A DNA stretch of 63,609 nt from a virus (Duplodnaviria > Caudoviricetes), in the IMG/VR virus record IMGVR_UViG_3300042892_001063, positions 1-63,609 of that record; one strand, written 5' to 3'. Positions 1-29,100 of the stretch are shown here, piece by piece. Made by a program: the position numbers and the translations under genes. The notes beneath the pieces were generated by a model. That model was not told the origin of the DNA. It saw only the letters and a list, made by a program, of their open reading frames with translations, and made no database searches. Each line of letters opens with the position of its first letter. Position 1 is the stretch's first letter.

Positions 1-127
1 TTATCCGACAACAAACGACTACAAACGACTACAAATGTAAATTATTGAATTGGTTTATATATACATACGCGCGTGTATTACATTATTACGCAAATTTTGA
101 ATTTATAAGATACTTACAAAAGTTGCT
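1..127. repeat. Terminal direct repeat, copy 1 (identical to 63483-63609)
   Basis: ttatccgaca...aaagttgct at 1-127 recurs at 63483-63609; 127 bp equals a common assembler k-mer, so this indicates a circular assembly. Confidence 0.95.
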
Positions 128-367
128 TTATACGTGTCTAATATCTTACATCATTTAATATTAACATTTATTTGCAATCATAACTACTTCATTATCAACT
201 ACTTAATGACATTAAAAATATTAACTCTTAATATTATGTTAATTTATTAACTTTTGCCTTAAAATTGTATTTTTTTTAAATACCTGAAAATCAACACTTT
301 AATAAAATCAAACTGTTAATTTTATGTTAATATTTATTTTTGTAGTTTTTTTGTCTTAAAAAGTATT

Positions 368-375
368 TATATTTG
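368..375 (+). promoter_or_regulatory. Bacteroidota sigma70-type -7 element (TATATTTG), early promoter
   Basis: Matches TAnnTTTG; TTTG at 339-342; upstream of the first + strand ORF. Confidence 0.65.
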
Positions 376-458
376 CTTCAGAATTGTACGAAAGACGTGT
401 AATTTAGGCAAATAGCCGACTTAATCGCCTGATAATCAGGCATTTACATCAAAACATT

Positions 459-860
459 ATGAATAATTCAACAAAAAATGCAGTAAAATCAACTGTTAAC
501 AATTTAAAAGTAGTTAACAAAGCGGAACAAAAGTTATTAAGTGTACCAACGCCAAAGGTAAAAGCCCCAAAGATAGTAAAGGTAAAAGCCCCTAAAATAG
601 AACTACATAAGGCGTTACTTGACTGTAACCAATTAGACAAAGCTGAAAATTTCAGTTTGTCAGGAGCATTGAACCGCCTTAAAAAGCAAGTTCAAAAAAA
701 CCAAACTTACAAAGGTATTACGCCTGTTATACTTGATGAAGCTATGAAGTTTGACAATTTATTAAAAAACGTGTCCGCCCGTTGTATTGCTTCGCAAAGG
801 TTTACAGTTTACGCCTTAGGACTAGCCGTAAACAAGTACTTAAAAACCGCCTTAAAATAG
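459..860 (+). CDS. Hypothetical basic early protein
   Basis: 133 aa ORF after the promoter, AACATTATG start context, Lys-rich with a repeated KVKAPKI. Confidence 0.75.
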   Translation: MNNSTKNAVKSTVNNLKVVNKAEQKLLSVPTPKVKAPKIVKVKAPKIELHKALLDCNQLDKAENFSLSGALNRLKKQVQKNQTYKGITPVILDEAMKFDNLLKNVSARCIASQRFTVYALGLAVNKYLKTALK

Positions 861-1025
861 GCGTTACCTGAATAAAAACCCCGCTTACCTTAGTGAGAAT
901 AGCTAAGGGCAAAAATCGAACTTTTGCGGGGTTCAAATATACCTTATTTTAGGTATAAAAAGCCCTTATTTTAGGTGCTTATGTATAAACGGCAAAAATA
1001 TCTATTTTGATACGTTGTTTATATC

Positions 1026-1041
1026 GTTCATTGACTTATTG
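1026..1041 (+). promoter_or_regulatory. rrn boxA-like antitermination element (GTTCATTGACTTATTG)
   Basis: Resembles the boxA consensus GCTCTTTAACA / GTTCTTTGACA; lies in the non-coding early leader. Confidence 0.4.
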
Positions 1042-1247
1042 GAATTGACTTTTACAAATGCAAACATAATTTGTTTACAAATGTAACGACTTGGAACACT
1101 ACGAAAGTACCATCATAAAATCGTATATAGTTACAGTATTGACAGTAATAGGTTCGCCTTAGTTGATATGTAGTGTATATAGTCAAGCCCGCTTGCAAGC
1201 GGTTTTAATATGCAAAAAAGTCAATTATGACTTAGACAAAATAGGTA

Positions 1248-1265
1248 TGTTTACAAATGTAAACA
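1248..1265. promoter_or_regulatory. Palindromic operator-like site TGTTTACA-AA-TGTAAACA
   Basis: Perfect 8-bp arms; variants at 1050-1066, 1072-1087, 30-41 and 59657-59666. Confidence 0.5.
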
Positions 1266-1311
1266 CAAATATAAATAACAATACCACCTTACATATAGTG
1301 AGGTGGAATAT

Positions 1312-1364
1312 TGTATGGTATAGCTATTGGAATAGTCAATGTGGTTCGATTCCACACTATACAC
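1312..1364 (+). ncRNA. Mini tRNA-like element (acceptor stem + one hairpin + T arm)
   Basis: TGTATGG/CTATACA acceptor stem; TGTGG-TTCGATT-CCACA T arm; only ~21 nt between them. Confidence 0.55.
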
Positions 1365-1384
1365 TAACTTTAAAATAAACCAAA

Positions 1385-1567
1385 ATGAGAACACGTATTG
1401 AAACCAAAGTAAATGTTGAAAGCGTAATTCAACAAATTGAAAATGAATTTACAGCCTATTCAAAGGCTGTCAAAACAGTAATGAAATTATACAATTTAGC
1501 GTACAAAGATGCTAAGCGTATGCTTGAAGCGAGAATAGAGTACAGACTAACCTTTAAAACTAATTAA
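1385..1567 (+). CDS. Hypothetical protein
   Basis: 60 aa ORF, A-rich leader, tight operon spacing. Confidence 0.7.
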   Translation: MRTRIETKVNVESVIQQIENEFTAYSKAVKTVMKLYNLAYKDAKRMLEARIEYRLTFKTN

Positions 1568-1568
1568 G

Positions 1569-1790
1569 ATGAACACAACAATTAAAGAACAAATTGAATC
1601 TCAAAGTTGGAAAGGTTTGGGATATACTATTTATGTTATAGATTATTCTAAGTTTATTCAAGGATTAGAAACAGAAACCGAAGCAGAAAATAATGCTTAT
1701 ACATATTGGCAAACAAATAAAGGTATTGAATTTCAAGACGAGAGAAGTGAATTAGCTTATAATAATAATATAAAAATAAAAACAATATGA
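1569..1790 (+). CDS. Hypothetical protein
   Basis: 73 aa ORF abutting its neighbours. Confidence 0.7.
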   Translation: MNTTIKEQIESQSWKGLGYTIYVIDYSKFIQGLETETEAENNAYTYWQTNKGIEFQDERSELAYNNNIKIKTI

Positions 1791-1906
1791 GAAACTTAAT
1801 CAATTTCGTAGTAGCGTCAATCACGCTGTTAACGGTGGACAATGCTGTAATGTGTATTGGAATAGTAGCAATAGTATTAATCAATATCAAATCAATAGTA
1901 AGATGA
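1787..1906 (+). CDS. Small membrane protein (39 aa, not in ORF track)
   Basis: MRNLINFVVASITLLTVDNAVMCIGIVAIVLINIKSIVR; ATGA overlaps on both sides. Confidence 0.6.
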   Translation: MRNLINFVVASITLLTVDNAVMCIGIVAIVLINIKSIVR

Positions 1907-2190
1907 ATTATATAACACCAATTAAGAAACAATTAGACTCAAATATGCACGACCAATGCGTAATGTTTATGTTAATCGGAACACCTAGAGAAAGTCCAAG
2001 GTGGATGAACTTCGGAGATTTCAATATGGATACCAAAGTATTGACAATTCAAAGCACCCAACGAAGAGGAATATTCTTCAATGTTGAAACAGACTTTGAT
2101 TGGGTAGATTGCGAAGAGTTTTGGGTACAATTCAAGCTATATAGAACTAGTTTTTTAATAGATAACTATCCAACAATTAGTACATATTAA
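1903..2190 (+). CDS. Hypothetical protein
   Basis: Start moved to ATG 1903 (ATGA coupling with the upstream ORF). Confidence 0.65.
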   Translation: MNYITPIKKQLDSNMHDQCVMFMLIGTPRESPRWMNFGDFNMDTKVLTIQSTQRRGIFFNVETDFDWVDCEEFWVQFKLYRTSFLIDNYPTISTY

Positions 2191-2191
2191 T

Positions 2192-2419
2192 ATGGCACTT
2201 TACGAAATAGTTATAGGAAATCAGTCAGGAGATACTAATTATTCAGTATTGGTATTATCAAATCAACCTTTAGATGAGAAAAACGCTCACAATGTAGTAG
2301 GTATAGATGAGGGTTGGGGAGAATATATTGCATCAGTAAGTATAGCTATGGTGCGAACTAACTCTTACGATGAAGAAGAAGAAGAAGAATTAATGAACAT
2401 TAGAAACTTATTATTATGA
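2192..2419 (+). CDS. Hypothetical protein
   Basis: 75 aa ORF with an acidic run. Confidence 0.7.
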   Translation: MALYEIVIGNQSGDTNYSVLVLSNQPLDEKNAHNVVGIDEGWGEYIASVSIAMVRTNSYDEEEEEELMNIRNLLL

Positions 2420-2754
2420 AATTTATAATAGACAGACCGATTGAAGGCTCATATTCAGAAGAAATAAAATTTGAGCAAACTCATAAATTCTTTAATATGG
2501 AAGACAAGGAAAGAGCCGAGAGAAATAGATTAAGATGGATTGAGCCCGATGAAACAGTTATATATGGTTGGATTGATGATGATGAAACTTGTCATAGAGT
2601 GTGTAGAAAAACAATTGAATGCATAGATGTTAACACGCTTGAGGAATTATATGCCATCACTAAAAGTAACGAGGGCAAAATAGTGTTCGGAACTAATAGA
2701 GGTCACGAAGGTATTGATGGGTGGATAGAGATATATGATGACTACAGAGAGTAA
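2416..2754 (+). CDS. Hypothetical protein
   Basis: 112 aa, ATGA overlap, ends IEIYDDYRE. Confidence 0.75.
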   Translation: MKFIIDRPIEGSYSEEIKFEQTHKFFNMEDKERAERNRLRWIEPDETVIYGWIDDDETCHRVCRKTIECIDVNTLEELYAITKSNEGKIVFGTNRGHEGIDGWIEIYDDYRE

Positions 2755-2758
2755 AGAT

Positions 2759-2914
2759 ATGCAAACAGAACTAACAGACATTAAGAAGTGGACAGATACC
2801 TATCTAAATCCACCAACAGTACAGGCGTGGAAAGATGCGTACGAGAAACTTAAAAAAGTCCACGATAAGTACGGCACAATAGAAATAAGTATAATCAAAT
2901 CATTAATCAATTAA
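2759..2914 (+). CDS. Hypothetical protein (51 aa, not in ORF track)
   Basis: Fills the gap with 4-nt spacing on each side. Confidence 0.55.
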   Translation: MQTELTDIKKWTDTYLNPPTVQAWKDAYEKLKKVHDKYGTIEISIIKSLIN

Positions 2915-2918
2915 CATT

Positions 2919-3320
2919 ATGGAAACAAAAACAATTCAATCGTGGAGACACAAAAAAGTACGTGTAAAAGAAGAGTATATTATTAAAGAAAGGCTTATAG
3001 ATGAAGACGCATCTACCTATGATGATGATGACAATATTATTGAAGAAGTGTATTATGAACAAGAGTATATAAAGTCCTATTGTGGACTTGGAAGTGTATT
3101 AAGAGGCAAAGAGCGAGATGTTTTTGAGGTAGCATCTGACTGTTATGGCGTTGACTTATATAGTTATCATTTTCAAAAATTTGATATAGATACACTACCT
3201 GAACCAACGCATCAAATAATATTAAGAGATAATGGATACCCATTTATGTGGGATACTAAGTACTTCGAGGTGGTAACGGCTGAAACAATTTATGTAACTG
3301 ACAAAGAATTTAATCAATAA
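2919..3320 (+). CDS. Hypothetical acidic protein
   Basis: 133 aa, AACATTATG start context. Confidence 0.75.
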   Translation: METKTIQSWRHKKVRVKEEYIIKERLIDEDASTYDDDDNIIEEVYYEQEYIKSYCGLGSVLRGKERDVFEVASDCYGVDLYSYHFQKFDIDTLPEPTHQIILRDNGYPFMWDTKYFEVVTAETIYVTDKEFNQ

Positions 3321-3324
3321 CATT

Positions 3325-3669
3325 ATGAACACACAAAACTTTTTAGATGCATTAGACAAATTAACTTTTGTCAAGTACGAAGACAAGACCCTGCATACGG
3401 CAGAGGGTTTTGAGATTAGCTATGAAATTGAATTAAATGGTGGTGCAATATCAAAGTATCCACTTGAATTCATATTCAGAGTAAGGAAAGACAACACACA
3501 CGTACAATCGTGGGGTTGTGAAGACAATGACGACAATATTATTGCTAACATTTGGTGGCAAAAGAAAGAGAGTTCGATGCATCAATTAGAGTATGATGCG
3601 AAAGACAAAAAGAAATGCGAATTAAAAGATGAATTTAAACGATTAACCGTTTATAAATTAGAACTATGA
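3325..3669 (+). CDS. Hypothetical protein
   Basis: 114 aa, AACATTATG start context. Confidence 0.75.
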   Translation: MNTQNFLDALDKLTFVKYEDKTLHTAEGFEISYEIELNGGAISKYPLEFIFRVRKDNTHVQSWGCEDNDDNIIANIWWQKKESSMHQLEYDAKDKKKCELKDEFKRLTVYKLEL

Positions 3670-3878
3670 AAGACATTAAACATTATTCAGACCAAGAGCT
3701 AAGCCTCTTATTTTTTAACGATGAGTTTTTATATACGGAACTAATGAGAGCAGTCAGGAGAGCTGACTTTACTATTGTAAAAGAGTTATGCGATGAGTTT
3801 TTCATCTACACGAAAGACCAATTAGAGGACTTAGCCGACACATTCAACAATGAACTAATAGATTACGAACAAGAATAA
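3666..3878 (+). CDS. Hypothetical protein
   Basis: 70 aa, ATGA overlap. Confidence 0.7.
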   Translation: MKDIKHYSDQELSLLFFNDEFLYTELMRAVRRADFTIVKELCDEFFIYTKDQLEDLADTFNNELIDYEQE

Positions 3879-3890
3879 AACTATCACTCT

Positions 3891-4193
3891 ATGGAAAAAG
3901 AATTTAGAATTTATAAGCATAAATTAATTTTAAACAAGGGAGACAAGCGAATACTCAAAAAGTATTTAAAGTATTACGCTGACAAATTAGAGGTAACTAA
4001 TTATAGTTTATCAGAAGACTTTATAGGGTGTACTCCTGCGGCAGATATGGAAAAATACTATATAGGTATGAGGTTTATGGTTGGGCAAATGCAGCACGAA
4101 TTAAATAATATTAAGACTGTTGGAGAACAACAGGAGATTGACAGGAAGTGGGATTTAATAAAGGATAGAAATATAATAGGAGAAGAACAATAA
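3891..4193 (+). CDS. Hypothetical protein
   Basis: 100 aa ORF in the operon. Confidence 0.7.
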   Translation: MEKEFRIYKHKLILNKGDKRILKKYLKYYADKLEVTNYSLSEDFIGCTPAADMEKYYIGMRFMVGQMQHELNNIKTVGEQQEIDRKWDLIKDRNIIGEEQ

Positions 4194-4216
4194 TTATTAA
4201 CTAAATTTTTTACATT

Positions 4217-5431
4217 ATGACATTATCAGAATTAAGAATACTTTACGAAGTGTTCGACCAAGACAGAAGAAAAGTGGAACGTGCAATTGCAAGTATTGAC
4301 GAGGAGTTTGTAACCATTGACGAGGTAGAGCGTGAAGATTACTTTATATACGGAAAATTCATATACTCGTCTGACAACTATGTGAGTGACTACTATGGTA
4401 ATTTAGTAGAAAGAGACAATGCGTTTTGGTGTAGTGGATATGAAGAATACTTCAACATTGAGGATAGCGTGACCGTCTATGAGTATAGGAATGAAGATAG
4501 ATACAGTCGCAGATATGCCGAGCAGAACTGTGATTGGAACGAGTATCGTGGAGAATACTACGACCAAGAGGCATTGGCGGAACACGACCTTGTATATGTT
4601 GAAGATGCAGGGGAGATTATGAATGAAGATAGCGCATATTATCACGAAGAAGAAGGGAATTGGTACACATATCCTAGTGACAGACAGGAATACACACGAG
4701 GGTATCACGATGGTTCGTACCAATCAGTAAACTTTGACGGCAAGTCTAAGTATAAAATTGGCTATGAGATTGAGAAGGAAGACCAAAGGGTATTAGAATC
4801 TATTAACATTGAGGACTTCGAGCAAGAGACGGGGGGTGTATGGCGTAAAGAGAGAGACGGCAGTCTTAATGAAGGTACAGGCTACGAGTTAATCAGTCCT
4901 ACATTTGAGTTCAATATTGACAAAATATTTGAGCATATCGAGGGCAATAGTACATTGGTAAAACATATCAATGCAGAGATTTCAACACGATGCGGTGGAC
5001 ATATCCACTTATCAGAAGCGGGGTTATCAGGAGAGCAACTGTTTGATAAGGTCAAAGGTTATACGCCACTGTTCTACGCATTGTACTATGGTAGAGTTGA
5101 CAAAACATACTGTAAAGGTAAGGCTAACATTGACCTCAAGTGTGAGAACGAGAAGTACCAAGCAATTAAGATACATCATGACCGTATTGAGTTTAGGATT
5201 ATCAGCGCAGTACCAAACGTTAAGACATTGAAGTGGCGAACTAAGTTGTTGATGATGATTCTACAACACCCTACCAATGACATTATCAAAGCGTACTACA
5301 ATGTAGATACCAAGTTCACAAAAATACTTAAGCAAACCTACTCTGATGAGAAGTTGGTTGAGTTGAAAGAAAGATTTATAAAATTTACAAGACAATTCGA
5401 GGGAATAGATATTAATAACAATAAAAAATAA
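4217..5431 (+). CDS. Putative amidoligase (COOH-NH2 ligase type, Amidoligase_2-like)
   Basis: Motifs IGYEIE, DGSL, YELISP, CGGHIH, IEFR; followed by a GATase. Confidence 0.85.
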   Translation: MTLSELRILYEVFDQDRRKVERAIASIDEEFVTIDEVEREDYFIYGKFIYSSDNYVSDYYGNLVERDNAFWCSGYEEYFNIEDSVTVYEYRNEDRYSRRYAEQNCDWNEYRGEYYDQEALAEHDLVYVEDAGEIMNEDSAYYHEEEGNWYTYPSDRQEYTRGYHDGSYQSVNFDGKSKYKIGYEIEKEDQRVLESINIEDFEQETGGVWRKERDGSLNEGTGYELISPTFEFNIDKIFEHIEGNSTLVKHINAEISTRCGGHIHLSEAGLSGEQLFDKVKGYTPLFYALYYGRVDKTYCKGKANIDLKCENEKYQAIKIHHDRIEFRIISAVPNVKTLKWRTKLLMMILQHPTNDIIKAYYNVDTKFTKILKQTYSDEKLVELKERFIKFTRQFEGIDINNNKK

Positions 5432-5437
5432 AACATT

Positions 5438-6256
5438 ATGTGCATAGCAATTTTAAACTGTAAAAAAGGTGGAAGACTACCTAAAAAACAAATTCAAAAC
5501 TCTTGGGATAACAATGATATGGGAGCAGGGCTTCTATGGAATAAAGATAACAAGTTAAATGTATTCAAAACGTATGAGTACGAAGAGTATATCGAGAAGT
5601 ATAACGAGCTGCGTGATGATAAGTCTATCGGGCATATTGTCCTACATTTCAGGATAGCCACAAGTGGATACAAAGGAGAGCATAACCTACACCCATTCCT
5701 TACCAATGATAACTTAGGGTTCGTACATAACGGAGTGATTAAGGGATTAGGTAATAAAACATTCTCAGATACGTATGAGTTCAACGATATGCTTAAGAAA
5801 TTCAGTCATAACTTCCTGACTTGTGATATGAGTAAGTTCTTCATATCAGAGTACATAGGGTATAGCAAGTTAATCTTCTTAGATAATAAAGACAAGTACA
5901 CCATTATCAACGAAGAGTTAGGCAAGTGGTCAAGTGGCAATTGGTACTCAAACGATTCGTATAAAGAATATAATGACTACTCGTACCACGGGAATGTTAA
6001 GGTAGCTAAGGGTGCTAACAATAGCGTTGACTTCTCAGCTAAGTGGGACGATATGGACGTATGGGATAGCCCTACGCCTAAGACATATACCTATGATGAT
6101 GAGGAGTTGTATGATGAGTGGGAGATATACGAATACTTATGCGACCTATACGGATTAGACCCTAACGATGAGTCCTCATTCAAGGAGATTGAGATATATA
6201 TGGACTTAAACGGAGCTAAAACTATTACTGAACTGTACGATACTATCGTACTTTAA
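5438..6256 (+). CDS. Class II (Ntn) glutamine amidotransferase
   Basis: N-terminal MC, HFRIATSG, NLHPF, FVHNG, SDT. Confidence 0.9.
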   Translation: MCIAILNCKKGGRLPKKQIQNSWDNNDMGAGLLWNKDNKLNVFKTYEYEEYIEKYNELRDDKSIGHIVLHFRIATSGYKGEHNLHPFLTNDNLGFVHNGVIKGLGNKTFSDTYEFNDMLKKFSHNFLTCDMSKFFISEYIGYSKLIFLDNKDKYTIINEELGKWSSGNWYSNDSYKEYNDYSYHGNVKVAKGANNSVDFSAKWDDMDVWDSPTPKTYTYDDEELYDEWEIYEYLCDLYGLDPNDESSFKEIEIYMDLNGAKTITELYDTIVL

Positions 6257-6530
6257 TTAAAACTATCATTATTATGGAAACATTAATAGTTTTATGTGCG
6301 TACTTACTAGGTATATTCACAGGAATGAATTTAAAAAAATAATAGTTATGGAAAATGAAAATTATTATGTTGAGTTTACAGGAGAGTTTTATCAATCTGT
6401 ATTTCCAAAAAACGAATCAGACAAAAGTCAACTTCATACTACAAAGCAAGATGCTATAGATTATATAGTTCAAGAGAGTGGAGTATATCCAACAATACTT
6501 TAATAATTAAAAACTATCATCATTATGGAA
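6249..6530 (+). repeat. Direct repeat of a stop-leader-start junction (6249-6279 and 6496-6530)
   Basis: TACTTTAA(TAA)TTAAAA(A)CTATCATYATTATGGAA twice; partial copy at 3876-3896. Confidence 0.7.
6348..6503 (+). CDS. Hypothetical protein
   Basis: Likely start MENENYY; a 22-aa hydrophobic ORF at 6274-6342 precedes it. Confidence 0.55.
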   Translation: MENENYYVEFTGEFYQSVFPKNESDKSQLHTTKQDAIDYIVQESGVYPTIL

Positions 6531-6801
6531 GACGTAACCAAATTTTATGAGTGGCTCTTAAAAATTAAAAGCATTCATTTAGCAGACAATTACCGTATGA
6601 GCAAGGCGTTCGATACGGTATATCAAAACAGTGTTGAACCAATTAAAAGAGAACGGAAATGTACACTATCTACTTAGAGTATAGAGGCAATAATGAGCTG
6701 CTGACAAAGGTCAGTGGCTTAGCCAAAGCAAGAGCAGTGTGTAACCAAATAGCCAACGACTGTGGAGATAACTTCATAGTGTGGTATAAAAAACTAAAAC
6801 A

Positions 6802-7188
6802 ATGACTAAAGAATTTATACCTTACGAACGAGCATTAGCTTTAAAAAAATTAGGATTTGATGAATCTTGCATAGGTTTTTATAATGTTAGAAGCCTTTTT
6901 GTACCTGATTATAAAGTAACTAAATTACAAATTGATAATTTAAGATTAGAAAAATGTTGTTTAGCGCCAACATTCGCACAAGCATTTAGATGGTTTAGAG
7001 AGAAGTATAATTTAGATAAAGTAATCTACCCAACGTTAGGAAGTGAAGGAAATTACTATATAAATATTTTTCAAAATTATAATAGTGATAATTCTTTGTA
7101 TTGGAATTGCTCCTATGAAACATTAGAAGAAGCAGAACTTGAATGTCTTAAAAAATTAATTGAGATATGCAACACACACAAACAGTAA
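6802..7188 (+). CDS. Hypothetical phage protein
   Basis: EFIPYExALALKKLGFDE...AFRWFREK...EEAELECLKKLIEI pattern. Confidence 0.75.
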   Translation: MTKEFIPYERALALKKLGFDESCIGFYNVRSLFVPDYKVTKLQIDNLRLEKCCLAPTFAQAFRWFREKYNLDKVIYPTLGSEGNYYINIFQNYNSDNSLYWNCSYETLEEAELECLKKLIEICNTHKQ

Positions 7189-7583
7189 CGCCTCACGGAG
7201 GATTTAACAAATCAGAACAGATGAAAGATAACAAATTAATAGCAGAGTTTATGGGGTTTCAACATACATCAATAGGTTGGTATGATGCAGAGGAATGCCT
7301 ACCTTTTAAATATGAAAATACATTTGACAACTTGAGATTTGATAAGGATTGGAATTGGTTGATTCCTGTGGTGGAAAAGATTGAGAGCACTAAATATTTT
7401 AATAGTGAAATTCAATTTTCAATTACTAAGTATGCAGTTAGTATTCAGTCAATAGATAAGAATGGTGTAATAATATCTCCTTGTATATTTTCAAAGCAAG
7501 GTACTTTTGCGGGTACAGAAAAAAGAAACGCTATATATATAGCCTGTGTAGAATTTATTAAATGGTATTATAAAAATGATTAA
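7167..7583 (+). CDS. Hypothetical phage protein
   Basis: NKLIAEFMG...DWNWLIPVVEKIE pattern; start may be at 7221. Confidence 0.75.
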   Translation: MQHTQTVTPHGGFNKSEQMKDNKLIAEFMGFQHTSIGWYDAEECLPFKYENTFDNLRFDKDWNWLIPVVEKIESTKYFNSEIQFSITKYAVSIQSIDKNGVIISPCIFSKQGTFAGTEKRNAIYIACVEFIKWYYKND

Positions 7584-7782
7584 AGTAACAGAAGACAATT
7601 TCGTTTGGAAAGTTCTAACCGAAAGTCAAGCCAAATTCATATTCATATCAGGAATATTTGAGTTATATTTGCTATTCGATGATGGCACAGATACCCTCAT
7701 TGAAAGCATTGAAGAGATAGGAGAAGCTACCAAAGAGGGAGCGCAATTAGTAATTGAAGTAGGATTTTATGAAAGTATATAG
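7576..7782 (+). CDS. Hypothetical protein
   Basis: 68 aa, overlaps its neighbours. Confidence 0.7.
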   Translation: MIKVTEDNFVWKVLTESQAKFIFISGIFELYLLFDDGTDTLIESIEEIGEATKEGAQLVIEVGFYESI

Positions 7783-7993
7783 AGTAAGTACAACTGCGTA
7801 TGAAGAGGAGGACTTCTTCTTACATACAGAGATAACAGAACAGGAAATCATAGATGTAGTAACACCAATAGTTATGCGAGAACGTGATGGCTACGAGGAT
7901 TACGATAACGAATTATTACTTGATGCTTTAAGAAAGAAGTATTCAAGAAAAGCGATTGAGCTATATACAGAGTTCGATACGATTAAGATTTAG
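7769..7993 (+). CDS. Hypothetical protein
   Basis: 74 aa. Confidence 0.7.
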   Translation: MKVYRVSTTAYEEEDFFLHTEITEQEIIDVVTPIVMRERDGYEDYDNELLLDALRKKYSRKAIELYTEFDTIKI

Positions 7994-8136
7994 AAGGGCG
8001 GCGGTTAAAAAATCCTTACTTATCGGTAATGTAGGTCGTTGTAATGCTATTGGTCAATTCAGTCGCTGCTCAGAGTTTACGCTCTACTCATAATACTGAA
8101 ATTACAATAAGATTGACTGATGGAAAGACATCAACA

Positions 8137-8207
8137 GGGCATTTGGTGTAAGATATTGGTAACATTCCACTTATTAGGAGATAGGGGTTCGATTCCCCTA
8201 ATGCCCA
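8137..8207 (+). tRNA. tRNA-like element / pseudo-tRNA with a truncated anticodon arm
   Basis: GGGCATT/AATGCCC acceptor, GTGT/ACAT D stem with GG in the loop, AGGGG-TTCGATT-CCCCT T arm; anticodon arm only TCC-ACTTATTA-GGA; followed by CTA rather than CCA. Confidence 0.7.
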
Positions 8208-8227
8208 CTAACTTTAAATTAAATCAA

Positions 8228-8488
8228 ATGGAACAGAATGAAACACTACAATCGTTTACGGCAAAAACATTAGATGCTATTGACGATGCAAAGAAGTTAT
8301 TAAGAGAGCATGGGTATTTTGTCGATAACTTATGGCAAACTTGTGACATCACAGACATTTGGGAATGTACAGAGGAACAGGCTCAGGAGTTATTATACAA
8401 GGCACTTACAAGTGAGTCAACAGTAGAGCAGATACACATTGCTGTTTGTTTTATGGCAGAAGATATGAACTTAAAAGAACTATCATAA
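8228..8488 (+). CDS. Hypothetical protein
   Basis: Start moved to 8228 (AAATCAAATG leader); the longer track ORF runs through the tRNA-like element. Confidence 0.7.
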   Translation: MEQNETLQSFTAKTLDAIDDAKKLLREHGYFVDNLWQTCDITDIWECTEEQAQELLYKALTSESTVEQIHIAVCFMAEDMNLKELS

Positions 8489-8490
8489 TT

Positions 8491-9285
8491 ATGAAAAACA
8501 TACACATATTACAACAAACAGATAAACCGAGTAGGTTACACGAATACGACTTCCTATCTCCAATGGGTTTATCAAAAGAACCTTTACAATGGAGATTGGG
8601 TAGAAACATCTACATCACTTCTGATGAAGAAATTAAAGAAGGAGATTGGTTTATAGATATTACTCTTACTAATAATGGTTTAATATATAAATCAGCAGGA
8701 TTTTCAAATTCTTTAGCGTATGAAGGTTGGGTAAAATCAACAACAAATATTATAAAAGAACCAAAAACTCAATGTAAAAAAATCATCCTAACAACAGACC
8801 AAGACTTAATCAAAGATAGTGTACAAGCTATTGATGATGAGTTTTTAGAATGGTTCATAAAAAATCCAAGTTGTGAGGAGGTTGAGGTTATTAAACATGT
8901 GGTAGATATGAGTATCTACGTGGATGATATTGAAAAGTGTAATGATACTAACTATGTAGAATACGAAATAATCATTCCAAAACAAGAATCTAAACAAGAA
9001 ACACTTGAAGAAGCTAAAAAACAACAGTTTAAGTATGATAACCTACAAGATGCTAAAGAAATTTCTTCACGCGTTAAAGTAGTTGAAACACTTGAAGAAG
9101 CTGCTGAAAGAATATATCCAAAAAACATTGTGAGTGATGGTTATGATACAAATTTTTTAGGTAGAGTTGGATTATATTTAGGTGCTAAATGGCAACAAGA
9201 TAAAATATGTGATTCAGAAGTAATACAAAGAATTAGAGGAACAAAATCAGATGCAGAAGCACGAAGAATTATTAGAACAATTTAA
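8491..9285 (+). CDS. Hypothetical mosaic phage protein
   Basis: MKNIHIL...IYITSDEEIKEGDW...KKIILTTD...ETLEEA twice. Confidence 0.75.
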   Translation: MKNIHILQQTDKPSRLHEYDFLSPMGLSKEPLQWRLGRNIYITSDEEIKEGDWFIDITLTNNGLIYKSAGFSNSLAYEGWVKSTTNIIKEPKTQCKKIILTTDQDLIKDSVQAIDDEFLEWFIKNPSCEEVEVIKHVVDMSIYVDDIEKCNDTNYVEYEIIIPKQESKQETLEEAKKQQFKYDNLQDAKEISSRVKVVETLEEAAERIYPKNIVSDGYDTNFLGRVGLYLGAKWQQDKICDSEVIQRIRGTKSDAEARRIIRTI

Positions 9286-9489
9286 AAAGAAATAAGATGA
9301 AAGAAATATTAGAAGTTATAGTAATATTATTTTTTATAATTGGTGTTTTTACGATTGCAGGAATAGTAATAGAATATTTAGTAAACAAATTTAGCAAGTA
9401 AAATGAAAGAAGACGAAGTGCCGTATTATAAATGGTGTTACGGAAAGTTTATATTAGTAGGTTATGTAATAAAAGATAAAAAGTAAATT

Positions 9490-9795
9490 ATGAAAGATTA
9501 TTTTGAATTAGAAGTTTGCGTAGAACAATGGGCAGAAGACAAAGGTATATTAGCTAAGGCTACACCTATGAAACAGGCAATGAAGACTCAAGAAGAGTTG
9601 ACTGAGTTGTGTAATGCTATCCTTGATAACGACAGGGAAGAGATTAAAGATGCTATTGGAGATATTGTGGTAACACTAATCATTCAAGCCAAGATGCAAG
9701 GTATGACTATCGAAGAATGTTTGAACGCTGCATACGATGTAATAAGTAAGCGAACAGGAGTTATGAGAAACGGACAGTTCGTAAAAGATAAGTAG
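9490..9795 (+). CDS. MazG-like nucleotide pyrophosphohydrolase
   Basis: KTQEELTEL...DAIGDIVVTL. Confidence 0.85.
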   Translation: MKDYFELEVCVEQWAEDKGILAKATPMKQAMKTQEELTELCNAILDNDREEIKDAIGDIVVTLIIQAKMQGMTIEECLNAAYDVISKRTGVMRNGQFVKDK

Positions 9796-9797
9796 AT

Positions 9798-10190
9798 ATG
9801 AATAGTGGCTGCTTTAAAAAAGGAAACAAACCTTGGAACTTAGGGCTAAAGGGAATGCATCTCAGTCCTGATACAGAGTTCAAGAAAGGAGAAAGGTTTG
9901 GTAAAGAACACTATAGTTGGAAAGGCGGTGTTCAATTAGTTAAGAATGATTGTGCATATCTTTATGAAGGAATAAACAAACGAGTCAGAAGACCCAAAAA
10001 AGTATATGAAGATGCTAATGGAAAAATTCCTAAAGGTTGGATTATATACCACTTAGATAAAGATAAGGACAATGACCAATTGGATAATCTAATAACTATT
10101 CCAAGAGCGATACTTGTTAAAATAAACGCAAACAGAATGAACGCAAATTATTATGAAATTAAAAAAGCAGTAGAAGAATATGGAAGATAA
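9798..10190 (+). CDS. HNH endonuclease-like protein (possibly degenerate)
   Basis: FKKGNKPWN N-terminal repeat; GKIPKGWIIYHLDKDKDNDQLDNL. Confidence 0.7.
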   Translation: MNSGCFKKGNKPWNLGLKGMHLSPDTEFKKGERFGKEHYSWKGGVQLVKNDCAYLYEGINKRVRRPKKVYEDANGKIPKGWIIYHLDKDKDNDQLDNLITIPRAILVKINANRMNANYYEIKKAVEEYGR

Positions 10191-10482: not shown

Positions 10483-10569
10483 AATACAAAGTTTACGGAG
10501 CATTAATGTGGTTGCTGTTTATAGCAATCATAACACTATCATTATTATTAATAACAAATACAATTTAAA

Positions 10570-10914
10570 ATGACAATTCAAGACCAATTTAACTTAGAGT
10601 CAAGTAAAGAAAATCCAAACACTTTATTACTGTCAATACTGTCAAAAATATTAGACAGAGGTACAATTACTTTAGAAGAATGGAAATCATTAGGTAGGTT
10701 TATACCTAAAAAACAATTCCTTGACGAGAATCCAACAGGGGTAGTACTCGCATCTTGCGTAGAAGTAATACAATATCCGGGAGCACATTACATTCAAGTA
10801 ATGGAGTCAGGTACATTTAGATACAACTCAAAGATACATAGCAAAATACTTGACCAAGTTGAAGATATAGTATGGTTTTTAATATTTGAAAAACTTTGGT
10901 GTAATAAATGTTAG
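10570..10914 (+). CDS. Hypothetical protein
   Basis: 114 aa. Confidence 0.7.
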   Translation: MTIQDQFNLESSKENPNTLLLSILSKILDRGTITLEEWKSLGRFIPKKQFLDENPTGVVLASCVEVIQYPGAHYIQVMESGTFRYNSKIHSKILDQVEDIVWFLIFEKLWCNKC

Positions 10915-22698: not shown

Positions 22699-23101
22699 AA
22701 CAGAGCAGGACTTAAAAAGAGAACAAAAAGCTATAACTACATTCGTAAATACATTCGGAGGTTCATTCCAAAAGCTTGACCCTCAAGATATTGACTACAA
22801 AGTATTTGATAAAGAAGGTAAACTAATTGCATACGCTGAGGTAAAAGGAAGGATACGAACGCTATATGATGCCTATCCATTACCAATAGCAGCAAGGAAA
22901 GTCCTTAAACTTTCAGACAAGAGATTGGCTCCTGTAGTGATATGGTCTTGTGAAGATGGTATAATCTACGGTAGGGTTGAGAAATTAAAAGGAGAAATCA
23001 AGTGGGGTGGTCGTACCCCACGTGATAATTCCTTTAATGATTTAGAGCTTATGATATTCTATGATAAACAAAAGTCATTGAAGTATGTTAGATTTATCTA
23101 A
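22688..23101 (+). CDS. PD-(D/E)XK family nuclease
   Basis: IDY...AEVKGR. Confidence 0.6.
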   Translation: MTFETEQDLKREQKAITTFVNTFGGSFQKLDPQDIDYKVFDKEGKLIAYAEVKGRIRTLYDAYPLPIAARKVLKLSDKRLAPVVIWSCEDGIIYGRVEKLKGEIKWGGRTPRDNSFNDLELMIFYDKQKSLKYVRFI

Positions 23102-26100
23102 TCCTTATCATCTCTTTTTTTACGCTCTTTAATTTTAGCATTTGCTTTTTTCTCTCTTTCCTTAATCCTTTCATACATAGTACCTTCTCCGAAATTTCTT
23201 TCATATAATTTAGGATTAGTCTTCTTCATTTGTTCTTTACTTTCGTAACTACCTAGCAATTGCTCTTCTAAAGTTTTTTGATACACATCTTTCATCATAG
23301 ACTTTCTAATTTCTTTATAAAGAGGTACGAGACCTAAATTTCCTAATACTTCTAATGGTATTCTTCTACTTATTTCTTTTTCTCGTCTTTCTATAGCATC
23401 AGCCTCTTTTTTCTCAGGCTCAAATGCTTTCTTTAAGACAAGGTCAGTAGTTTTTATAGCAGGACCAAAAGACCCTGTCATATTTTTAAGCAAATCAAAA
23501 GCTCCTGTTTGTACTCCTTTTTTCTCAGGAGGTATAACTGAATACTGTAACGCATCTTTATACGGGTCATATTCTCCTGTTCTCAAGTCTTCAAGATATT
23601 CTTTATTAACTTCTTCCAATCCGTAATTAATAATAGTCTTACTTACGTTTCCAAAATCCCTACCAAATAACATAGAGGTAAATGTTGATGCTAATGCCTG
23701 ACCCACAGATTGAGCTGCTGATTTTTCATCTTCTTCTTCTTCGTCATCAAATATTAATCCTATAATACCTCCTCCTAATACTTTTATTAATAAACTATAT
23801 ACAGTCATACGAGTGGCAACAGCTCCTAATAAAGCAACTCCTTGTCTTCTTGTTAATGAACCATTACCCATAGCAGCATATATGCCTGTTCTTGCAGTAA
23901 CATATTCATATACCATAAATCTAGTCATAAAATTATTAAAGTTATTAAATGCTTTTATAGTAATGCTTTGGTCAGGCTTGCTTGTCCCTTTAAGTATTCC
24001 GGTAAAAGCATTGTTACTTGCTCCTGTTATTACCGACCTTTCGTCAGCAATATTTTTAGCTTCTTCAATAGCTTTTTTGTTTTCATTCATATAAGCCTCA
24101 TCATTCGCTGCAATTTTTTTAAAATCTATTTCATTTCCTGTTATTTTTTTGAAATTAAAAGCAAATGAGCCAAACCATATAGGTCTCATAATTACCTTAT
24201 CAGGAGTAGATATTAAAACATCTGCTGTTAACTCAACTGCATTAACATATTTCTTACCTGTTCTGTTCCAAATCTGTTCTATTTTATTTACAATAGGATT
24301 TTTAGACTTACCTCCTTTTATACCGCTTGCTTGACTTAATATATTGGTATCAATCATTCTTCCTGATAAAGTATCTGTTGGAAAAATTCTATTAGTCTCC
24401 TTACTATTTACATTATTCATTATAGCAGGAGCATCATCAGACATAGTTACATCATTATATTTTGTTCCTTCGGTAAATGAACTTGGGTCGCTAATAAGAA
24501 CAAATCCTACGTTTGATAGAAGTTCTGATGCAAATCTACCTGTTCCTGCAAGAACAGCTCTATATCCTTGCTTACTGATATAATCAACAACATCATCTCC
24601 AATAGATGTTTCCATATAACTATTGGTTATTAAGTTGCTAACAGACTCCTCAAATGCATTATTTATAGCATTTACTATTTGTCTTTTCTCTTTAGGTAAT
24701 TTTCCTTTACTTTCTAAATTAGAAATTGTTCTATTAATAGTCTTACGAGCAGTACGAATAGGCTCTGTTAAATGGTAATCCATCAATACAAACTTGGCTC
24801 CACGCTGAGCAGAAGCAAATACATCAAAATTTAAAGGAGATACTTTTCCTGTTCTCTCTATTAATGATTTTGCTTTTGTAGATGGCTTTAATGAATTATT
24901 ATATTGGTCAGCAAAAGACTGTCCCGATGCCATATCAGTTGGCTTATATTCGTGCAAAACATTTAAGTGTACATAATTATTTAAAGGGTTAATTTTTTGA
25001 CCTCTAATAATAGCAGCGGTATATTCAGCCTTGTCCTTTAATGATTCATTTGTATTGCGAATTACTTCAAGAGCATTTTTTTCAGCAGAATTAAATGAAT
25101 TATATAATTTTTCATTATCAATATTACCATCTGAATTAGTATAATCATCATATATTTTTTGCAATTTTTCAGCATCACGTTCTCCAAATTTAGACTTACC
25201 TGCCTCAATATGTTTTATTGTGGCTTTTAAATAGGCTGCCGCAGGATTTACTTGTTTGTTATCAGTATTAGAATCGTACTCAAGCTGAACCATATATGTC
25301 ATCATCTTAAACTTTGACATTAATGTTGCATCAGGATTAAGACCATGTGATTTCGCAACTCTTTCTTCTGCTTTCTCTAATATACCTCTTACGTTTTTTA
25401 ATTGTGAAGTAAACTTAGATTCTGCTTCAGCGGCTTTTTCTAATATTGAATTAAATATATCCTTTGTTTTAAAGTCTCCTAATACTTGGTCTATATTGAA
25501 CAAAGGATTTCTCCTTATCATCTCTAATATAGCATCTTTCTTTGTTAGCAAAGACTTTGCTTTAGCATATAATTTAGATATAGGTAACGGTTTTGATTTA
25601 TCTACAGCAGACTCTAAAACTTTAGAGTTATTGATAGCATTTATTTTCTCAACTACCAATTGAGTATAATGAGGTAAATAACCGTTATTTATATTATCAA
25701 TTACTTTTAGTAGATTTTTAATCTCTACATTTGTTAGTTCATTGATAGCGTCTCCTTTTACTAAAGCATTTAGTTCTTTTGCCTTTTCACGTTCATCTCT
25801 TGTATCAAGTTCACTAAAGTTAACTGTAGATTTTTTTACTTCTTTAATAAGTATTTCTTTTTCTACTTGAACTTCTTCTTCAGTTAATTTTGTTTTTTCT
25901 ACTTGAGGAGCAATATTACTTTTGTATTTAGTCATTAATTCCAATTCATCAGAATCTATCTCTCCTTGTTTAAGCATTTCTTTTATAGAAGCTGAATAGT
26001 CTAATTTTCCATCTTTAAATACTTTGTTTTCTGAATTATTAAACCTATCGGCTAACTCATCAGATAGCGATTGCTCATTGTTTATTTCGTCAAGTATGGC

Positions 26101-29100
26101 TTGTACATCTTTAATAGTTTTTGATTTCTCTTCAAGAGTAAGAACAGACTCTCTTTTGCCAAACATATTTACTAAATCCAAATATTTACCAAGATATGCA
26201 TCAGGTATTAATGTTGGATTAATACTAAATAATCTTTGTAATGGACCAACTAAACCATCTGCTATTCCTAATTTTGTAACAATGTTTTTCTTAGCGGTTT
26301 TTAATCTACCTTTAGCAATATCAATTTTATTAACATAGTCAGCATCGGCAAAAACTTTTGTCATATAATCAACAAAGCTAGATACAGACGCATCGTTAAG
26401 CACATTTACCTTACTAAATTTAACAAGTATATTTGTTAATTGAGTAGATGTAATTTTACCTGATTCTTTTAATTCTTTAATATCTTTAGTCAATTGTTGA
26501 CTTGCTAATTTAAAAGCTTTAACAGATTCTCTTGCACCTTTAGCAGTATCTTTAATTTGTTTTACAAGAGCAGCTTTCTCAGTCATTGTTATCTTAGCAA
26601 TATCTTTCAGCTTACCGAATAACCTATTCACAGATGGAGCTGACTTCTCCTTTAGACCAAACTCTTTACGAGTAGCTCTAACTAAAGCTTCTTTCTGAAT
26701 ATCATCTGCCTCAATATATTCTTTTGATTTTTCAAGAGTTTTTATTGCTGCATCAATTGTTTGTGCAGGTTTTTCAGCAGGAGCTACTTCAGTAGGTTTA
26801 GATTCTGTAAAAGTTACTTTTTGAGCAGGAGTTACTTCGATAGATTTCTCAGTAGGAGCTACTTCAGTAGGTTTAGCTTCCTCTCTTAAAAAAGTATTCT
26901 CTTTTAACGGATTATCTTTAATATCTTTCTCTAAAAGGTTTATATCATTCTTATACCTATCTATAGATTCTAAATCATTCTCAGCTCCTCTTTCTTCTAA
27001 GAAATCAACTAAATCTTTTTGACTTTTTAAAGCTGCTTCTCTTGGGTCTTTATTAAACTCTTCAGAATATTCGTAATTGTCTTTGTCTTTTTCTTTCTGT
27101 TCTATTTCATCATAAATCAAATCATTTACTCTTTGATTATTTTCTATATCTTGAGTTTTATTATCAAAATCTTCTAACTCTTTTTTCTTTTTATTATACT
27201 CTTCTATAGCTAAATCAGTATCTTCAGCTCTTGATATATTTTTCTTAGACTCATAAGCATCATCTTCTAATTTACTTCTTTCGTCTGAATTTTTTCTTTT
27301 TCTTGGCTGTTCATTCTCTAAAGCTGAAGGTCTATTCTCTGCATTAAATTCATCTACCTTAGCCTTTCTTCTTTCATAGTCAATTTCCCATTGTTCTTTA
27401 ACAGGTTTAGCTTCAGCAACTACTTCTTCCGGTTTCTCAGTAGGAGTTACCTCAGTAGGTTTCTCAGTTACGGTAGGTTGTACTTCAGGAGTTGTTTCTT
27501 GAGTAGGTTTTTCTTGAAGATGAAAATCAGCTAATGATTTTGCCATAGTAACTTTTACGAATGGTTCTCCATTATTTTCTCCTTTAGATGAAATTTTATC
27601 TTTAAATATTTCAGGAACTTCATTTTCGTTTTTATATTCAAATGTTACAACATTACCTTCATTTATATCTTTAAATTGTTGTTCTACACTTGGCTCTTTT
27701 ATTTCTTTCGGTTTCTCAGTAGTGATAGTTTCTTCAGGCTTCTCTAAAGCTTTTAATTTTTCATTAAAAATAGAATCTATATCATCAAGCTCATCTTTAG
27801 ATAGCTCAGAGCCTTTTCTTTCTGTGCTTGTTTCTATAAACTTCTGTTTCGCATCAGCGATTTCTTTTTCTGTGGTAGTTCCTTCAGGTTTGGCGTTTCC
27901 TTCGCCCACTCCTTGCAATCCCATTTCGGGTTGTTCTGTGCGTAGCACGCTTTCATCTGTTGTTGGCTTTTGAACGGCATCTTGTTCTGTTTTAATTGTT
28001 TCTAATTCTTTTAACGCTTTTTCTGTTCTTTCAACTAAACGTTTATCAAATTCACTTTCAGGATTTTCTTTTAAATCTTTTTTTGCTATCTCTAAAGTTT
28101 TTTCAATATATTTTCTTTTATCAGCAAAATATTCATTAGCTGATTCTTTTTCCCAACTATAGCTTTTTTCATTTTCAAGAATTTTTTTATTATAATCATC
28201 TAAACGTGATATTTCAGAATCTACCTCATCTTCTTGAATAGTAGGAGTTTCAGCGACAACCGTTTCGATAACTGCTTCGTCTTGTAATTGGTTTTCTTGA
28301 ATATCTTTGATTTGGTTTCTTAGTAGAGAAGCTTTATCCTTACCTGTTTGAGTTTTATTTCCTTCTAAATTTTGTAATTCTTTTTCTAATTCAGTAATAG
28401 CATTTAAACTTGGCTCATTAAGGTCAGGGTTAGCTTTTTTAACTTCTTGTTTAATTGTATTTGTAACTACTTTATCTTGTATTTTAAACATTCTTCCTTC
28501 GTAGTCATTGTTTATTACAATATCTGTAGCGTGTAACTCCTCAGGAGTCATTGTTTCTATTAAGTTATCAATATCACTTGCAGTTACCTTTTCTCCGTTC
28601 ACTTTATATGAAGGCTTCGCAAATCTAGCTTGAATAGTTGACCTAACACCACCCGGTAATTCAGCAAGACCTTCAAGTGCTATCTCAGATACATCCATAT
28701 CTTGACCTGTAGCCGCTCTTGCAGTAGCCTCTCCTGCTGAACCTCCTAATGCTTCAATAGCAGAACCCGCTGCTGTTGATTTTATAACAGCTTGTTTTGT
28801 TGCGGCTCCTACAGCTGATTTAGCAGCTGATTTTGATAATATTTTAGCACCAACACCTGACGCTAACTTTCCTGTAAGAGCATCTACAGTACCTATTATT
28901 ACGCCTCTTGCGATAGCTTTATTTCTAATTGATTGTAATTTTTCAGGGTCTTCAAGAATAGCTTTTACATTTTCCTTAGTAAGTTCTTTTCCTTTTAATT
29001 CATCTGTTAAAAGTTCTCCAAAAGTAGAACCTGCTTCAACAACAGTACTTGCTAAACCAAAAGCGTATGGTACTGCTGATGCCGCTCCTGATATAGCTCC

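Follow-up and report, generated by a model that had tools for sequence, protein, structure and literature searches.

We found that the first gene of the rightward replication-gene block in a virus of the Caudoviricetes (IMG/VR record IMGVR_UViG_3300042892_001063) is preceded by an element of ~46 nucleotides (nt), at 1318-1363, that is built like a transfer RNA (tRNA) reduced to its acceptor stem, a 4-base-pair (bp) hairpin that has GG in its loop, and a canonical T arm. This mini-tRNA, here called e1, has no D arm, no anticodon arm, and no anticodon; 16 nt lead from the 5′ strand of the acceptor to the T stem. The stretch analyzed (the window) is the complete virus record, 63,609 bp with 127-bp direct terminal repeats. 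Compensatory changes among diverged orthologues indicate that the structure of e1 is under selection in its lineage. We regard it as an even call that e1 is a cis-acting processing cassette for RNase P and RNase Z, one that would provide the gene behind it with a short A/U-rich leader. The parts of the element and its immediate surroundings are as follows:

1318-1323, plus strand: 5′ strand of the acceptor stem, GTATAG (covariance model match at 1318-1374, 27.6-27.7 bits; agrees with the orthologues)
1324-1335, plus strand: inner 4-bp hairpin CTAT-TGGA-ATAG, which presents GG (loop kept in the viral contig L065)
1340-1356, plus strand: T arm TGTGG-TTCGATT-CCACA (read directly; stems paired in the orthologues)
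1357-1363, plus strand: 3′ strand of the acceptor stem, CTATAC (1357-1362), and discriminator A1363 (no CCA encoded)
1364-1384, plus strand: trailer CTAACTTTAAA (1364-1374) and A-rich leader up to the ATG at 1385

The acceptor (6 bp) and T stem (5 bp) give a stack of 11 bp, A1363 is followed by CTA and not by CCA, and the downstream ATG lies 21 nt past the discriminator. The GG of the inner hairpin may mimic G18-G19 of the tRNA D loop. An earlier reading of this DNA, made from the letters alone (the sequence-only reading), had described the T arm, a 9-bp hairpin upstream of it (1284-1306, which we call HP2; one of its pairs is G.U), an ATG ~21 nt downstream, and a 13-nt tail shared with an element at 8137, and all four are there. 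It had also described a 7-bp acceptor-like stem closing an element of ~53 nt. That pairing does exist (TGTATGG at 1312-1318 with CTATACA at 1357-1363, one G.U), but the conserved register lies 5-6 nt away: The covariance model and the folded leader taken as a whole agree with the three diverged orthologues on 1318-1323/1357-1362, which shortens the element to ~46 nt and leaves 1312-1318 unsupported.

As the sequence-only reading had expected of a mimic, programs that look for tRNAs are silent here. ARAGORN makes no call at 1312-1384 at default or relaxed -ps settings and gives only a poor alternative fold at -ps80; Rfam (4227 families, E up to 10, window positions 1-10000) places nothing on e1, the models for tRNA (RF00005), transfer-messenger RNA (tmRNA), and YrlA included. 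Our covariance model, run over the window with filters off, scores e1 at 27.7 bits (E = 0.00054). Folding energies yield z-scores of -1.56 for 1318-1363 and -1.29 for 1312-1364, with 12 and 21 of 200 shuffles, respectively, folding equally well. The thermodynamic signal by itself is weak; the case that e1 exceeds chance rests on its canonical T loop and on covariation.

Three diverged orthologues occupy the same leader position: one in a viral contig (L065), one in a metagenome contig (L332), and one in the GenBank podovirus MW202828. Of two patterns scanned against metagenomes, the first gave no match and the second gave L332; the near-identical contig L003/L004 is uninformative on e1. All four sequences share the layout hairpin 1 (HP1)-HP2-mini-trailer. 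Their T stems are TGTGG/CCACA (window), TAGAG/CTCTA (L065), TAAGG/CCTTA (L332), and CGTGG/CCATG (MW202828), so that 20 out of 20 cells are paired, with four of the five pairs changed on both sides. The acceptors are GTATAG/CTATAC in the window, GCATAG/CTATGC in L065 and L332, and GCGCT/AGCGC in MW202828. The inner hairpin, CTAT/ATAG, is TCAT/ATGA in L065, a change of two pairs on both sides around an identical TGGA loop. In an unfitted MAFFT alignment of e1 and its orthologues, 90% of 60 cells are paired, against 74.9% in shuffled alignments (reached by 0 of 500), and eight of 15 pairs have changed on both sides; controls in which the strands were slid are 25%-52% paired. The sequence-only reading had named full tRNAs decaying without compensatory changes as the outcome that would speak against it, and what we find instead is orthologous minis with such changes. 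In four DNA sequencing runs aligned to the locus, e1 is invariant in close relatives, and the changes that occur (at 1291 and 1294) fall in HP2.

The element at 8137, which had been paired with e1 as a second mimic, turns out to be a full-size tRNA by both ARAGORN and Rfam, so the two are not a pair of mimics:

8137-8207, plus strand: tRNA-Trp(CCA) (ARAGORN 8137-8208, its one call in the window; Rfam tRNA 37.1 bits, gathering threshold 29)
8208-8227, plus strand: trailer CTAACTTTAAA (8208-8218) and leader; the ATG at 8228 opens an 86-amino-acid (aa) open reading frame (ORF)

The D stem of this tRNA is weak, consisting mostly of G.U pairs, and its anticodon stem has a C.A mismatch; its competence in decoding is not certain. 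Its T arm, trailer, and leader are shared with e1 (81% identity over 42 nt). The shared 13-nt string CACTAACTTTAAA, which ends in CTAACTTTAAA, stands at 1362-1374 and 8206-8218. Exact CTAACTTTAAA occurs twice in 63,609 bp, each time directly after a T arm, and copies with one mismatch are at chance level (seven found, 5.96 expected).

Both e1 and the tRNA at 8137 (e2) fit a single pattern of T arm, acceptor 3′ strand, N73, CTAACTTTAAA, and an ATG at +7 to +16. A first scan of IMG/VR (T loop, 9-12 nt, CTAACTTTAAA) returned 27 contigs; a second, with a relaxed T loop, returned at least 114, with 72 distinct elements among the matches listed, to which the following counts refer. Sorted by the distance between acceptor strands, the elements fall into minis (39-57 nt), tRNA-sized elements (70-75 nt), of which ARAGORN calls many, and over-long tRNA-like elements (~80-170 nt). 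All three classes can take the same slot, directly between or ahead of co-directional genes, with N73-CUAA and A/U-rich sequence next and an AUG ~20 nt past the discriminator. The T stem has at least 5 bp in 65 out of 72. A 7/7 upstream complement to the 3′ acceptor strand is present in 56 out of 66 elements, compared with 17.6% of mismatched partners, and one made entirely of Watson-Crick pairs in 35 out of 66, compared with 3.1%. For 68 out of 72 elements there is an ATG at +7 to +16 past the 11-mer, compared with 14.5% at random positions. Most other members have a 12-bp acceptor/T stack, as opposed to the 11 bp of e1.

Because MAFFT misregisters the 5′ strand of minis with unequal lengths, a covariance model was used for them instead. 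Seeded on three minis, it recovered the other minis and found more whose trailers keep only CTAA and A/T-rich sequence. Across 15 minis, 98.8% of 173 cells are paired versus 58.2% after shuffling (0 of 500 reach the observed value), in an alignment that was fitted to the model and favors structure; 11 of the 12 pairs have changed on both sides, and slid controls reach 40%-57%. Minis with the same linker and T arm can have wholly different paired acceptors (GAGATA/TATCTC in L017:454, AGTCAC/GTGACT in L022:6415). GG is present in the linker of every curated mini inspected (~15).

We also scanned for the linker and T loop without reference to the trailer (ATGGTTAAT, N3-7, GTTCGATTC). At least 119 contigs match, with 83 further distinct minis among the matches listed; at fixed geometry the acceptor is 6/6 paired in 75 of these, 68 of them with Watson-Crick pairs throughout. 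This result makes the mini fold the primary unit, which a trailer and start codon accompany in a little over half of the cases.

The gene context of the family is compact. Among the matches listed, 57 elements can be assessed: In 43, a same-strand ORF (at least 60 aa) ends no more than 250 nt upstream, often only 0-15 nt before the element, a spacing that leaves no room for a separate promoter. One of the others faces a divergent gene, and 13, including e1 and its orthologue in L065, have no upstream ORF. The slot in front of one gene family, whose sequences start MPNMSYCR, holds a 39-nt mini in L060, a form of 90-102 nt in L022, L026, L030, and L088, and in L113 a 73-nt element that is tRNA-shaped with CAT in the anticodon position. 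The viral loci contain 92 distinct tRNAs called by ARAGORN: 37 have both CTAA and a near ATG, three CTAA only, 36 a near ATG only, and 16 neither. In some large contigs (L071 and L078) tRNAs and genes alternate. We note that in five contigs of 120-183 kb (L071, L078, L059, L095, and L096) many tRNAs are followed by a start codon within ~25-30 nt and have trailers beginning with CTTA or CATTA, a pattern in which tRNAs punctuate gene after gene.

The trailer also occurs in host genomes. In 596 Gb of prokaryote genomes the family pattern matches 54 stretches, close to the ~35 expected by chance on a rough hand estimate, and many of these have no T stem. Five loci from Bacteroidales and Draconibacterium (L141, L142, L144, L154, and L161) have the same arrangement: tRNA-Glu, A-CTAACTTTAAA, 12-17 nt, and the start of rpsT. 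In the two genomes that were looked at again, ARAGORN assigns the tRNA to Glu, and the downstream ORFs match Pfam S20 with 91.4 and 84.6 bits. The trailer stands between tRNA-Glu and rpsT in genomes G001 and G002; Tenacibaculum (G003) has tRNA-Glu-rpsT without it. The starts of rpsT were located by regular expression in 13 of 33 host loci. Its presence at tRNA-Glu/rpsT, in front of a gene with high expression, implies that the trailer is not a phage invention.

What e1 retains (the acceptor/T stack, T loop, GG, and discriminator) is what RNase P, RNase Z, and CCA-adding enzymes read (PMC4919913), and the parts needed only for decoding are gone. The elbow is the point from which RNase P gauges distance along the acceptor/T stack, and it also sets the register for RNase Z and for the enzymes that add CCA (PMC4919913). 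Element e1 is a tRNA-like acceptor/T fold adjoining a gene by its structure, its conservation, and its place 21 nt before an ATG, and it is presumably transcribed. In the mechanism that we favor for it, the 6-bp acceptor would stack on the 5-bp T stem while the short hairpin offers its GG to cap the T loop, forming a tRNA elbow. Host RNase P would cut at the 5′ end of e1 and RNase Z after the discriminator, and the two cuts would remove the structured upstream RNA, so that the message behind e1 would begin with CUAA in a leader that is short, A/U-rich, and unstructured. A leader of this kind would suit the Shine-Dalgarno-independent initiation of Bacteroidota. In the window the cuts would strip away the HP1-HP2 leader and leave the first gene with a leader of 21 nt. 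Bacteroidetes messenger RNAs (mRNAs) are described in PMC6847099 as having no Shine-Dalgarno sequence, with initiation tuned by low mRNA structure and by upstream nucleotides such as A at -3. Since no CCA is encoded in the trailer-bearing members, 3′ maturation would probably need an endonuclease and CCA addition. The sequences show the fold, its conservation through compensatory changes, its position, and its coupling to start codons; transcription through e1, the two cuts, and a consequence for translation or RNA stability are inferred.

For the family as a whole we advance a broader proposal more tentatively, and would put it short of an even call. Bacteroidota phages may have evolved a class of anticodon-less mini-tRNAs (39-57 nt, GG linker, CUAA trailer) as portable processing and insulation cassettes. 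Together with real tRNAs these would punctuate operons as in mitochondria, giving each gene a Shine-Dalgarno-free 5′ leader made by RNase Z; the host would use the same device at tRNA-Glu/rpsT, and the released minis may be CCA-tailed decoys. Punctuation by RNase P and RNase Z had already been suggested by the sequence-only reading. It agrees with the family members that lie between co-directional genes; e1 itself lies at the start of an operon.

Several observations weigh against processing as the function of e1 and of the family. Punctuation between cistrons is inapplicable to e1, which opens an operon, as does its orthologue in L065; in neither case is there an ORF on the same strand in the 250 nt upstream. 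Of the 52 ARAGORN-called tRNAs that lack CTAA, 36 likewise have an ATG no more than 32 nt away, so compact spacing is not specific to the trailer. Among the trailer-independent minis in the matches listed, CTAA directly follows the discriminator in 32 out of 83, and an ATG lies 12-32 nt past it in 48, the others being followed by hairpins or other sequence; the 35 without such an ATG indicate that minis can stand alone like RNA genes. Conservation of the linker (AATGGTTAAT, TTTGGAA) and of the CUAA core goes beyond any known requirement of RNase P or RNase Z. The orthologue in MW202828 is the least canonical, with an 8-nt T loop and its ATG 46 nt past the trailer. The mini taken alone is unremarkable in folding energy (z = -1.3 to -2.3), and no RNA run containing the locus was found among the sequencing runs searched for it.

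Some of these points would also be expected if a mini were the gene for a trans-acting small RNA, excised and probably CCA-tailed, that serves as a decoy or sponge for a factor reading the tRNA acceptor or elbow; a tRNA-targeting defense nuclease, a nucleotidyltransferase toxin, RNase P, the CCA-adding enzyme, and EF-Tu are candidate targets, and closeness to a start codon would then be mere compaction. We consider this explanation unlikely, yet deserving of weight. It would account for the 35 stand-alone minis, several of them followed by hairpins as RNA genes are, for the conservation of linker and T-loop sequences among very different phages whose stems vary, and for minis that occupy the same slots as real tRNA genes. 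It is harder to reconcile with acceptors that differ completely among minis with the same linker and T arm (L017 and L022) and vary freely between close relatives, which speaks against mimicry of a single host tRNA identity. Nor does it account for the fixed distance to an ATG in 68 of the 72 trailer-bearing elements among the matches listed, or for the same trailer in front of host rpsT; and the profile of the CCA-adding enzyme (PF01743) has no match in the window.

An explanation at the level of DNA is improbable in our view. The trailer TAACTTTA could be a variant -7 promoter box, with the T-loop region as an upstream element, or the block of ~30 bp could be a recombination cassette on the model of the PeSL cassettes with which T4-type phages shuffle genes. 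The Bacteroidota sigma-A promoter consensus has a -7 box TAnnTTTG, in which TTTG is conserved, and TTTG at -33. TAACTTTA matches TAnnTTT-, the ATG lies 8-13 nt past the 11-mer, the block is near-identical across many phages ahead of unrelated genes, and some minis directly follow terminator-like hairpins (L029 and L124). However, a promoter would have no need of acceptor and T stems that covary. Relaxed members keep the CTAA core and not TTTG/TTTA (CTAAAATAATA, CTAAAAATATA); the promoter-like boxes elsewhere in the genome end in G, which TAACTTTA does not, and lie 29-34 nt before the ATG; and the distance from the T-loop TTCG to the box is ~17 nt, compared with the 19-21 nt usual in Bacteroides promoters. 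All 18 distinct exact copies of the trailer in 242 kb come with a T arm, the very feature by which 17 were ascertained.

Minis and real tRNAs in equivalent slots suggest that minis arose from tRNAs, and together with the 81% identity to the tRNA at 8137 and the silence of ARAGORN and Rfam this might be taken to mean that e1 is a functionless, dying tRNA paralogue that has lost its D and anticodon arms by internal deletion and has yet to erode. We judge this very improbable, contradicted as it is by covariation (orthologues that are also minis, eight of 15 pairs changed on both sides, T-stem cells 100% paired) and by the tail-independent minis (acceptors 6/6 paired in 75 of the 83 among the matches listed), with the GG linker retained throughout. 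Phages often integrate into the 3′ ends of tRNAs, and the T arm and acceptor 3′ strand are the part usually duplicated; but that e1 is the core of a phage attachment site copied from the 3′ half of a host tRNA is a reading with next to no probability, contradicted by a 22-mer of e1 (GTGG...CTATAC) with no exact match in 596 Gb of prokaryote genomes, by a 5′ acceptor strand that is present and covarying, and by direct terminal repeats and no integrase match in the ten large ORFs scanned.

The family resembles several known systems in part. In animal mitochondrial transcripts, tRNAs directly between cistrons serve as processing sites, much like the tRNA, gene, tRNA, gene order of L071 and L078; the punctuators there are decoding tRNAs, whereas many here have no anticodon arm. 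Synthetic minihelices of acceptor and T stems, with 12 bp, no linker, and 3′ NCCA, are minimal substrates of RNase P, RNase Z, and CCA-adding enzymes. Like them, e1 stacks its acceptor and T stems coaxially, has a T loop, and lacks an anticodon domain; unlike them, it has 11 bp, a 16-nt linker with the GG hairpin, and no CCA. With the Rfam tRNA family (RF00005) it shares the acceptor stem stacked on a T arm, the 7-nt loop TTCGATT, and a discriminator A, but not the D stem, anticodon arm, or anticodon. Bacterial Y RNA-like YrlA RNAs are reportedly non-coding tRNA mimics with a tRNA-like acceptor/T/D module; they differ in having a Ro-binding stem and a free-standing gene, and Rfam gives no match to YrlA at e1 or in four loci with minis.

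The translational enhancer "epsilon" of T7 gene 10, UUAACUUUA, for which pairing with 16S ribosomal RNA (rRNA) has been proposed, shares UAACUUUAA with the trailer CUAACUUUAAA, at a similar distance upstream of the AUG. The pairing has no counterpart here, and relaxed family members keep only CUAA; a search with the epsilon string showed it in vector-derived sequences. Against two Bacteroidota 16S rRNAs the best complement to the trailer has nine pairs including wobbles, near position 1315, with nothing around 420-520, which we take to be helix 17 by Escherichia coli numbering. As no convincing complement was present in these two genes, an epsilon-like pairing of the trailer was rejected.

In mascRNA/MALAT1 and MEN-beta, a tRNA-like fold sits in a longer transcript, and cuts by RNase P on its 5′ side and RNase Z on its 3′ side set the flanking ends and yield a small CCA-tailed RNA. 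Both elements are named as RNase P substrates in PMC4919913. They belong to long non-coding RNAs of eukaryotic nuclei, are cloverleaf-like with an equivalent of the anticodon arm, and define a 3′ end and not an mRNA leader. The t-elements of plant mitochondria resemble the family in their place: They are tRNA-like, lie at the 5′ and 3′ termini of mRNAs within their precursors, and have been proposed as cis-acting signals for RNase P, RNase Z, or both (Forner et al. 2007, PMC1920247). They are organellar, and they are not known to have a conserved trailer or a fixed distance to a start codon. The phage family, in contrast, is defined by sequence (GG linker, canonical T loop, CUAA trailer), has many members per lineage, and is putatively cleaved.

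In the main texts searched, few of them from subscription journals, neither phage elements of this kind nor the trailer are described. The principle of a tRNA-like processing signal is known; this family, its minimal GG-linker architecture, the CUAA trailer, and the phage setting appear to be new, and neither an Rfam family nor a paper was found that would take from the sequence-only reading its claim of a candidate undescribed system. The new RNA family numbers hundreds of members, covaries strongly, and has no entry in Rfam. It also carries a warning for annotation: In phages of this kind, many gaps labeled "intergenic" contain structured RNAs overlooked by tRNA finders. If the proposal is true, bacterial viruses would practice tRNA punctuation with elements that do not decode and keep only what processing enzymes read, which would be a testable answer to how Bacteroidota phages set mRNA 5′ ends and translation starts in packed operons when their hosts ignore Shine-Dalgarno sequences. 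For Bacteroidota genetics, the elements would also be natural insulator parts of compact size, ~45 nt with a trailer of 11 nt.

Rfam, applied to four loci that hold minis, returned no family, only a subthreshold tmRNA match in L027 (1-146, 22.5 bits against a gathering threshold of 47). That match covers model positions 186-374, is cut by the end of the locus, and overlaps one mini, which could be the 3′ end of a longer RNA. Over-long tRNA-like elements (~80-170 nt between the acceptor strands) have their acceptor and T arms in common and very different inserts, with the same trailer next. The acceptor GGGCGTG/CACGTCC is shared by L015, L016, L025, L031, and L088; AGTCAGG/CCTGACT by L033, L043, L045, L054, L064, and L090; and GAAGAGG/CCTCTTC by L032, L052, L085, L086, L116, and L118. 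The 5′ parts of some presumably resemble the 5′ end of tmRNA.

No cultured model of the family was found among the cultured phages examined. Cellulophaga phage Calle_1 (L215, MT732432) has an unannotated tRNA-like element at ~1453-1523, between the tRNA-Arg and tRNA-Ser of a tRNA array, with acceptor TTGGAGT/ATTCCAA and a canonical T arm followed by CTATTTTTAAAATAAAATG. Considered as a cultured member, it has the trailer CTATTTTTAAA and is not a clean one; the crAss-like phage cr130_1 is a partial look-alike only.

The host of the window phage is probably a member of the Bacteroidota, to judge from the relatives of its primase, its promoter-like boxes, its leaders, and the presence of close relatives in lake-water metagenomes. 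The primase shares 76% identity with the one encoded by the uncultured podovirus MW202828 and 44% with its counterparts in Flavobacterium phages. Rightward genes occupy 1385-23101 and include a primase/helicase-like protein and a helicase; leftward genes, from ~62,500 to 23,100, encode the portal, terminase, virion proteins, and GroEL, and have TAnnTTTG-type boxes and A-rich leaders without Shine-Dalgarno sequences. Two long leftward ORFs had no match in the database tried for each: one of 2265 aa (23098-29895, minus strand), which adjoins virion genes and has no Pfam match, and one of 904 aa (52033-54747, minus strand) with no PHROG match. Protein searches with the 60-aa ORF downstream of e1 matched the near-identical contig only, and those with the 133-aa ORF upstream had no match; blastn of window positions 1-8000 against cultured phages gave a single, irrelevant match. 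The features on either side of e1 are as follows:

1188-1206, plus strand: terminator-like hairpin and T run, CCCGCTTGCAAGCGG-TTTT (identical in L003)
1249-1264, plus strand: hairpin HP1, GTTTAC-AAAT-GTAAAC, preceded by a conserved TA(G/A)GTATG
1284-1306, plus strand: hairpin HP2, 9 bp, CCACCTTAC/GTGAGGTGG, one G.U (possible extension to 1279-1313)
1385-1567, plus strand: first ORF of the rightward replication-gene block, 60 aa (no family assigned; 100% identical in L004)

The terminator-like hairpin probably closes the upstream unit, with the e1 leader starting after it. The leader folds far better than the mini does: The 145 nt in front of the gene have z = -3.96, matched by 0 of 200 shuffles, and leaders of 141-146 nt in the window and its relatives have z = -3.3 to -4.0 (0-1 of 200 shuffles as good). 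HP1 folds in the window, L065, and MW202828 with differing stems (GCCTA/TAGGC and GTCCA/TGGAC in the relatives). The pairing of HP2 is kept in L003 (A-U to G.U), in L065 (U-A to U.G and U.G to C-G), and in L332; MW202828 has a different hairpin, GTGTCG/CGACAC, in its place. Elsewhere in the family, minis come directly after a strong hairpin in L029 (~10560-10590, with a T run) and L124 (~285-309), and L015:8706 and L031:711 have one upstream; an RNase P cut would leave such a hairpin as the 3′ terminus of the upstream RNA, where it might act as a stabilizer.

The 525-bp gene-free stretch upstream of e1 contains three copies of the 10-mer TTTACAAATG (1051-1060, 1074-1083, and 1250-1259), and the same repeats are present in L003. 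The third copy is the 5′ arm of HP1, and the repeats may be operator or promoter repeats or several RNA hairpins. In the leaders of the window, L065, and L216, RNAalifold pairs a conserved A(A/G)GU before HP1 (1242-1249) with ACUU of the trailer (1367-1370). The columns involved are nearly invariant, with a single A-U/G.U change, so that no compensatory test is possible. The pairing extends to 6 bp in L065 (UAAAGU/ACUUUA) and, if real, would enclose the entire leader and mask the trailer before processing.

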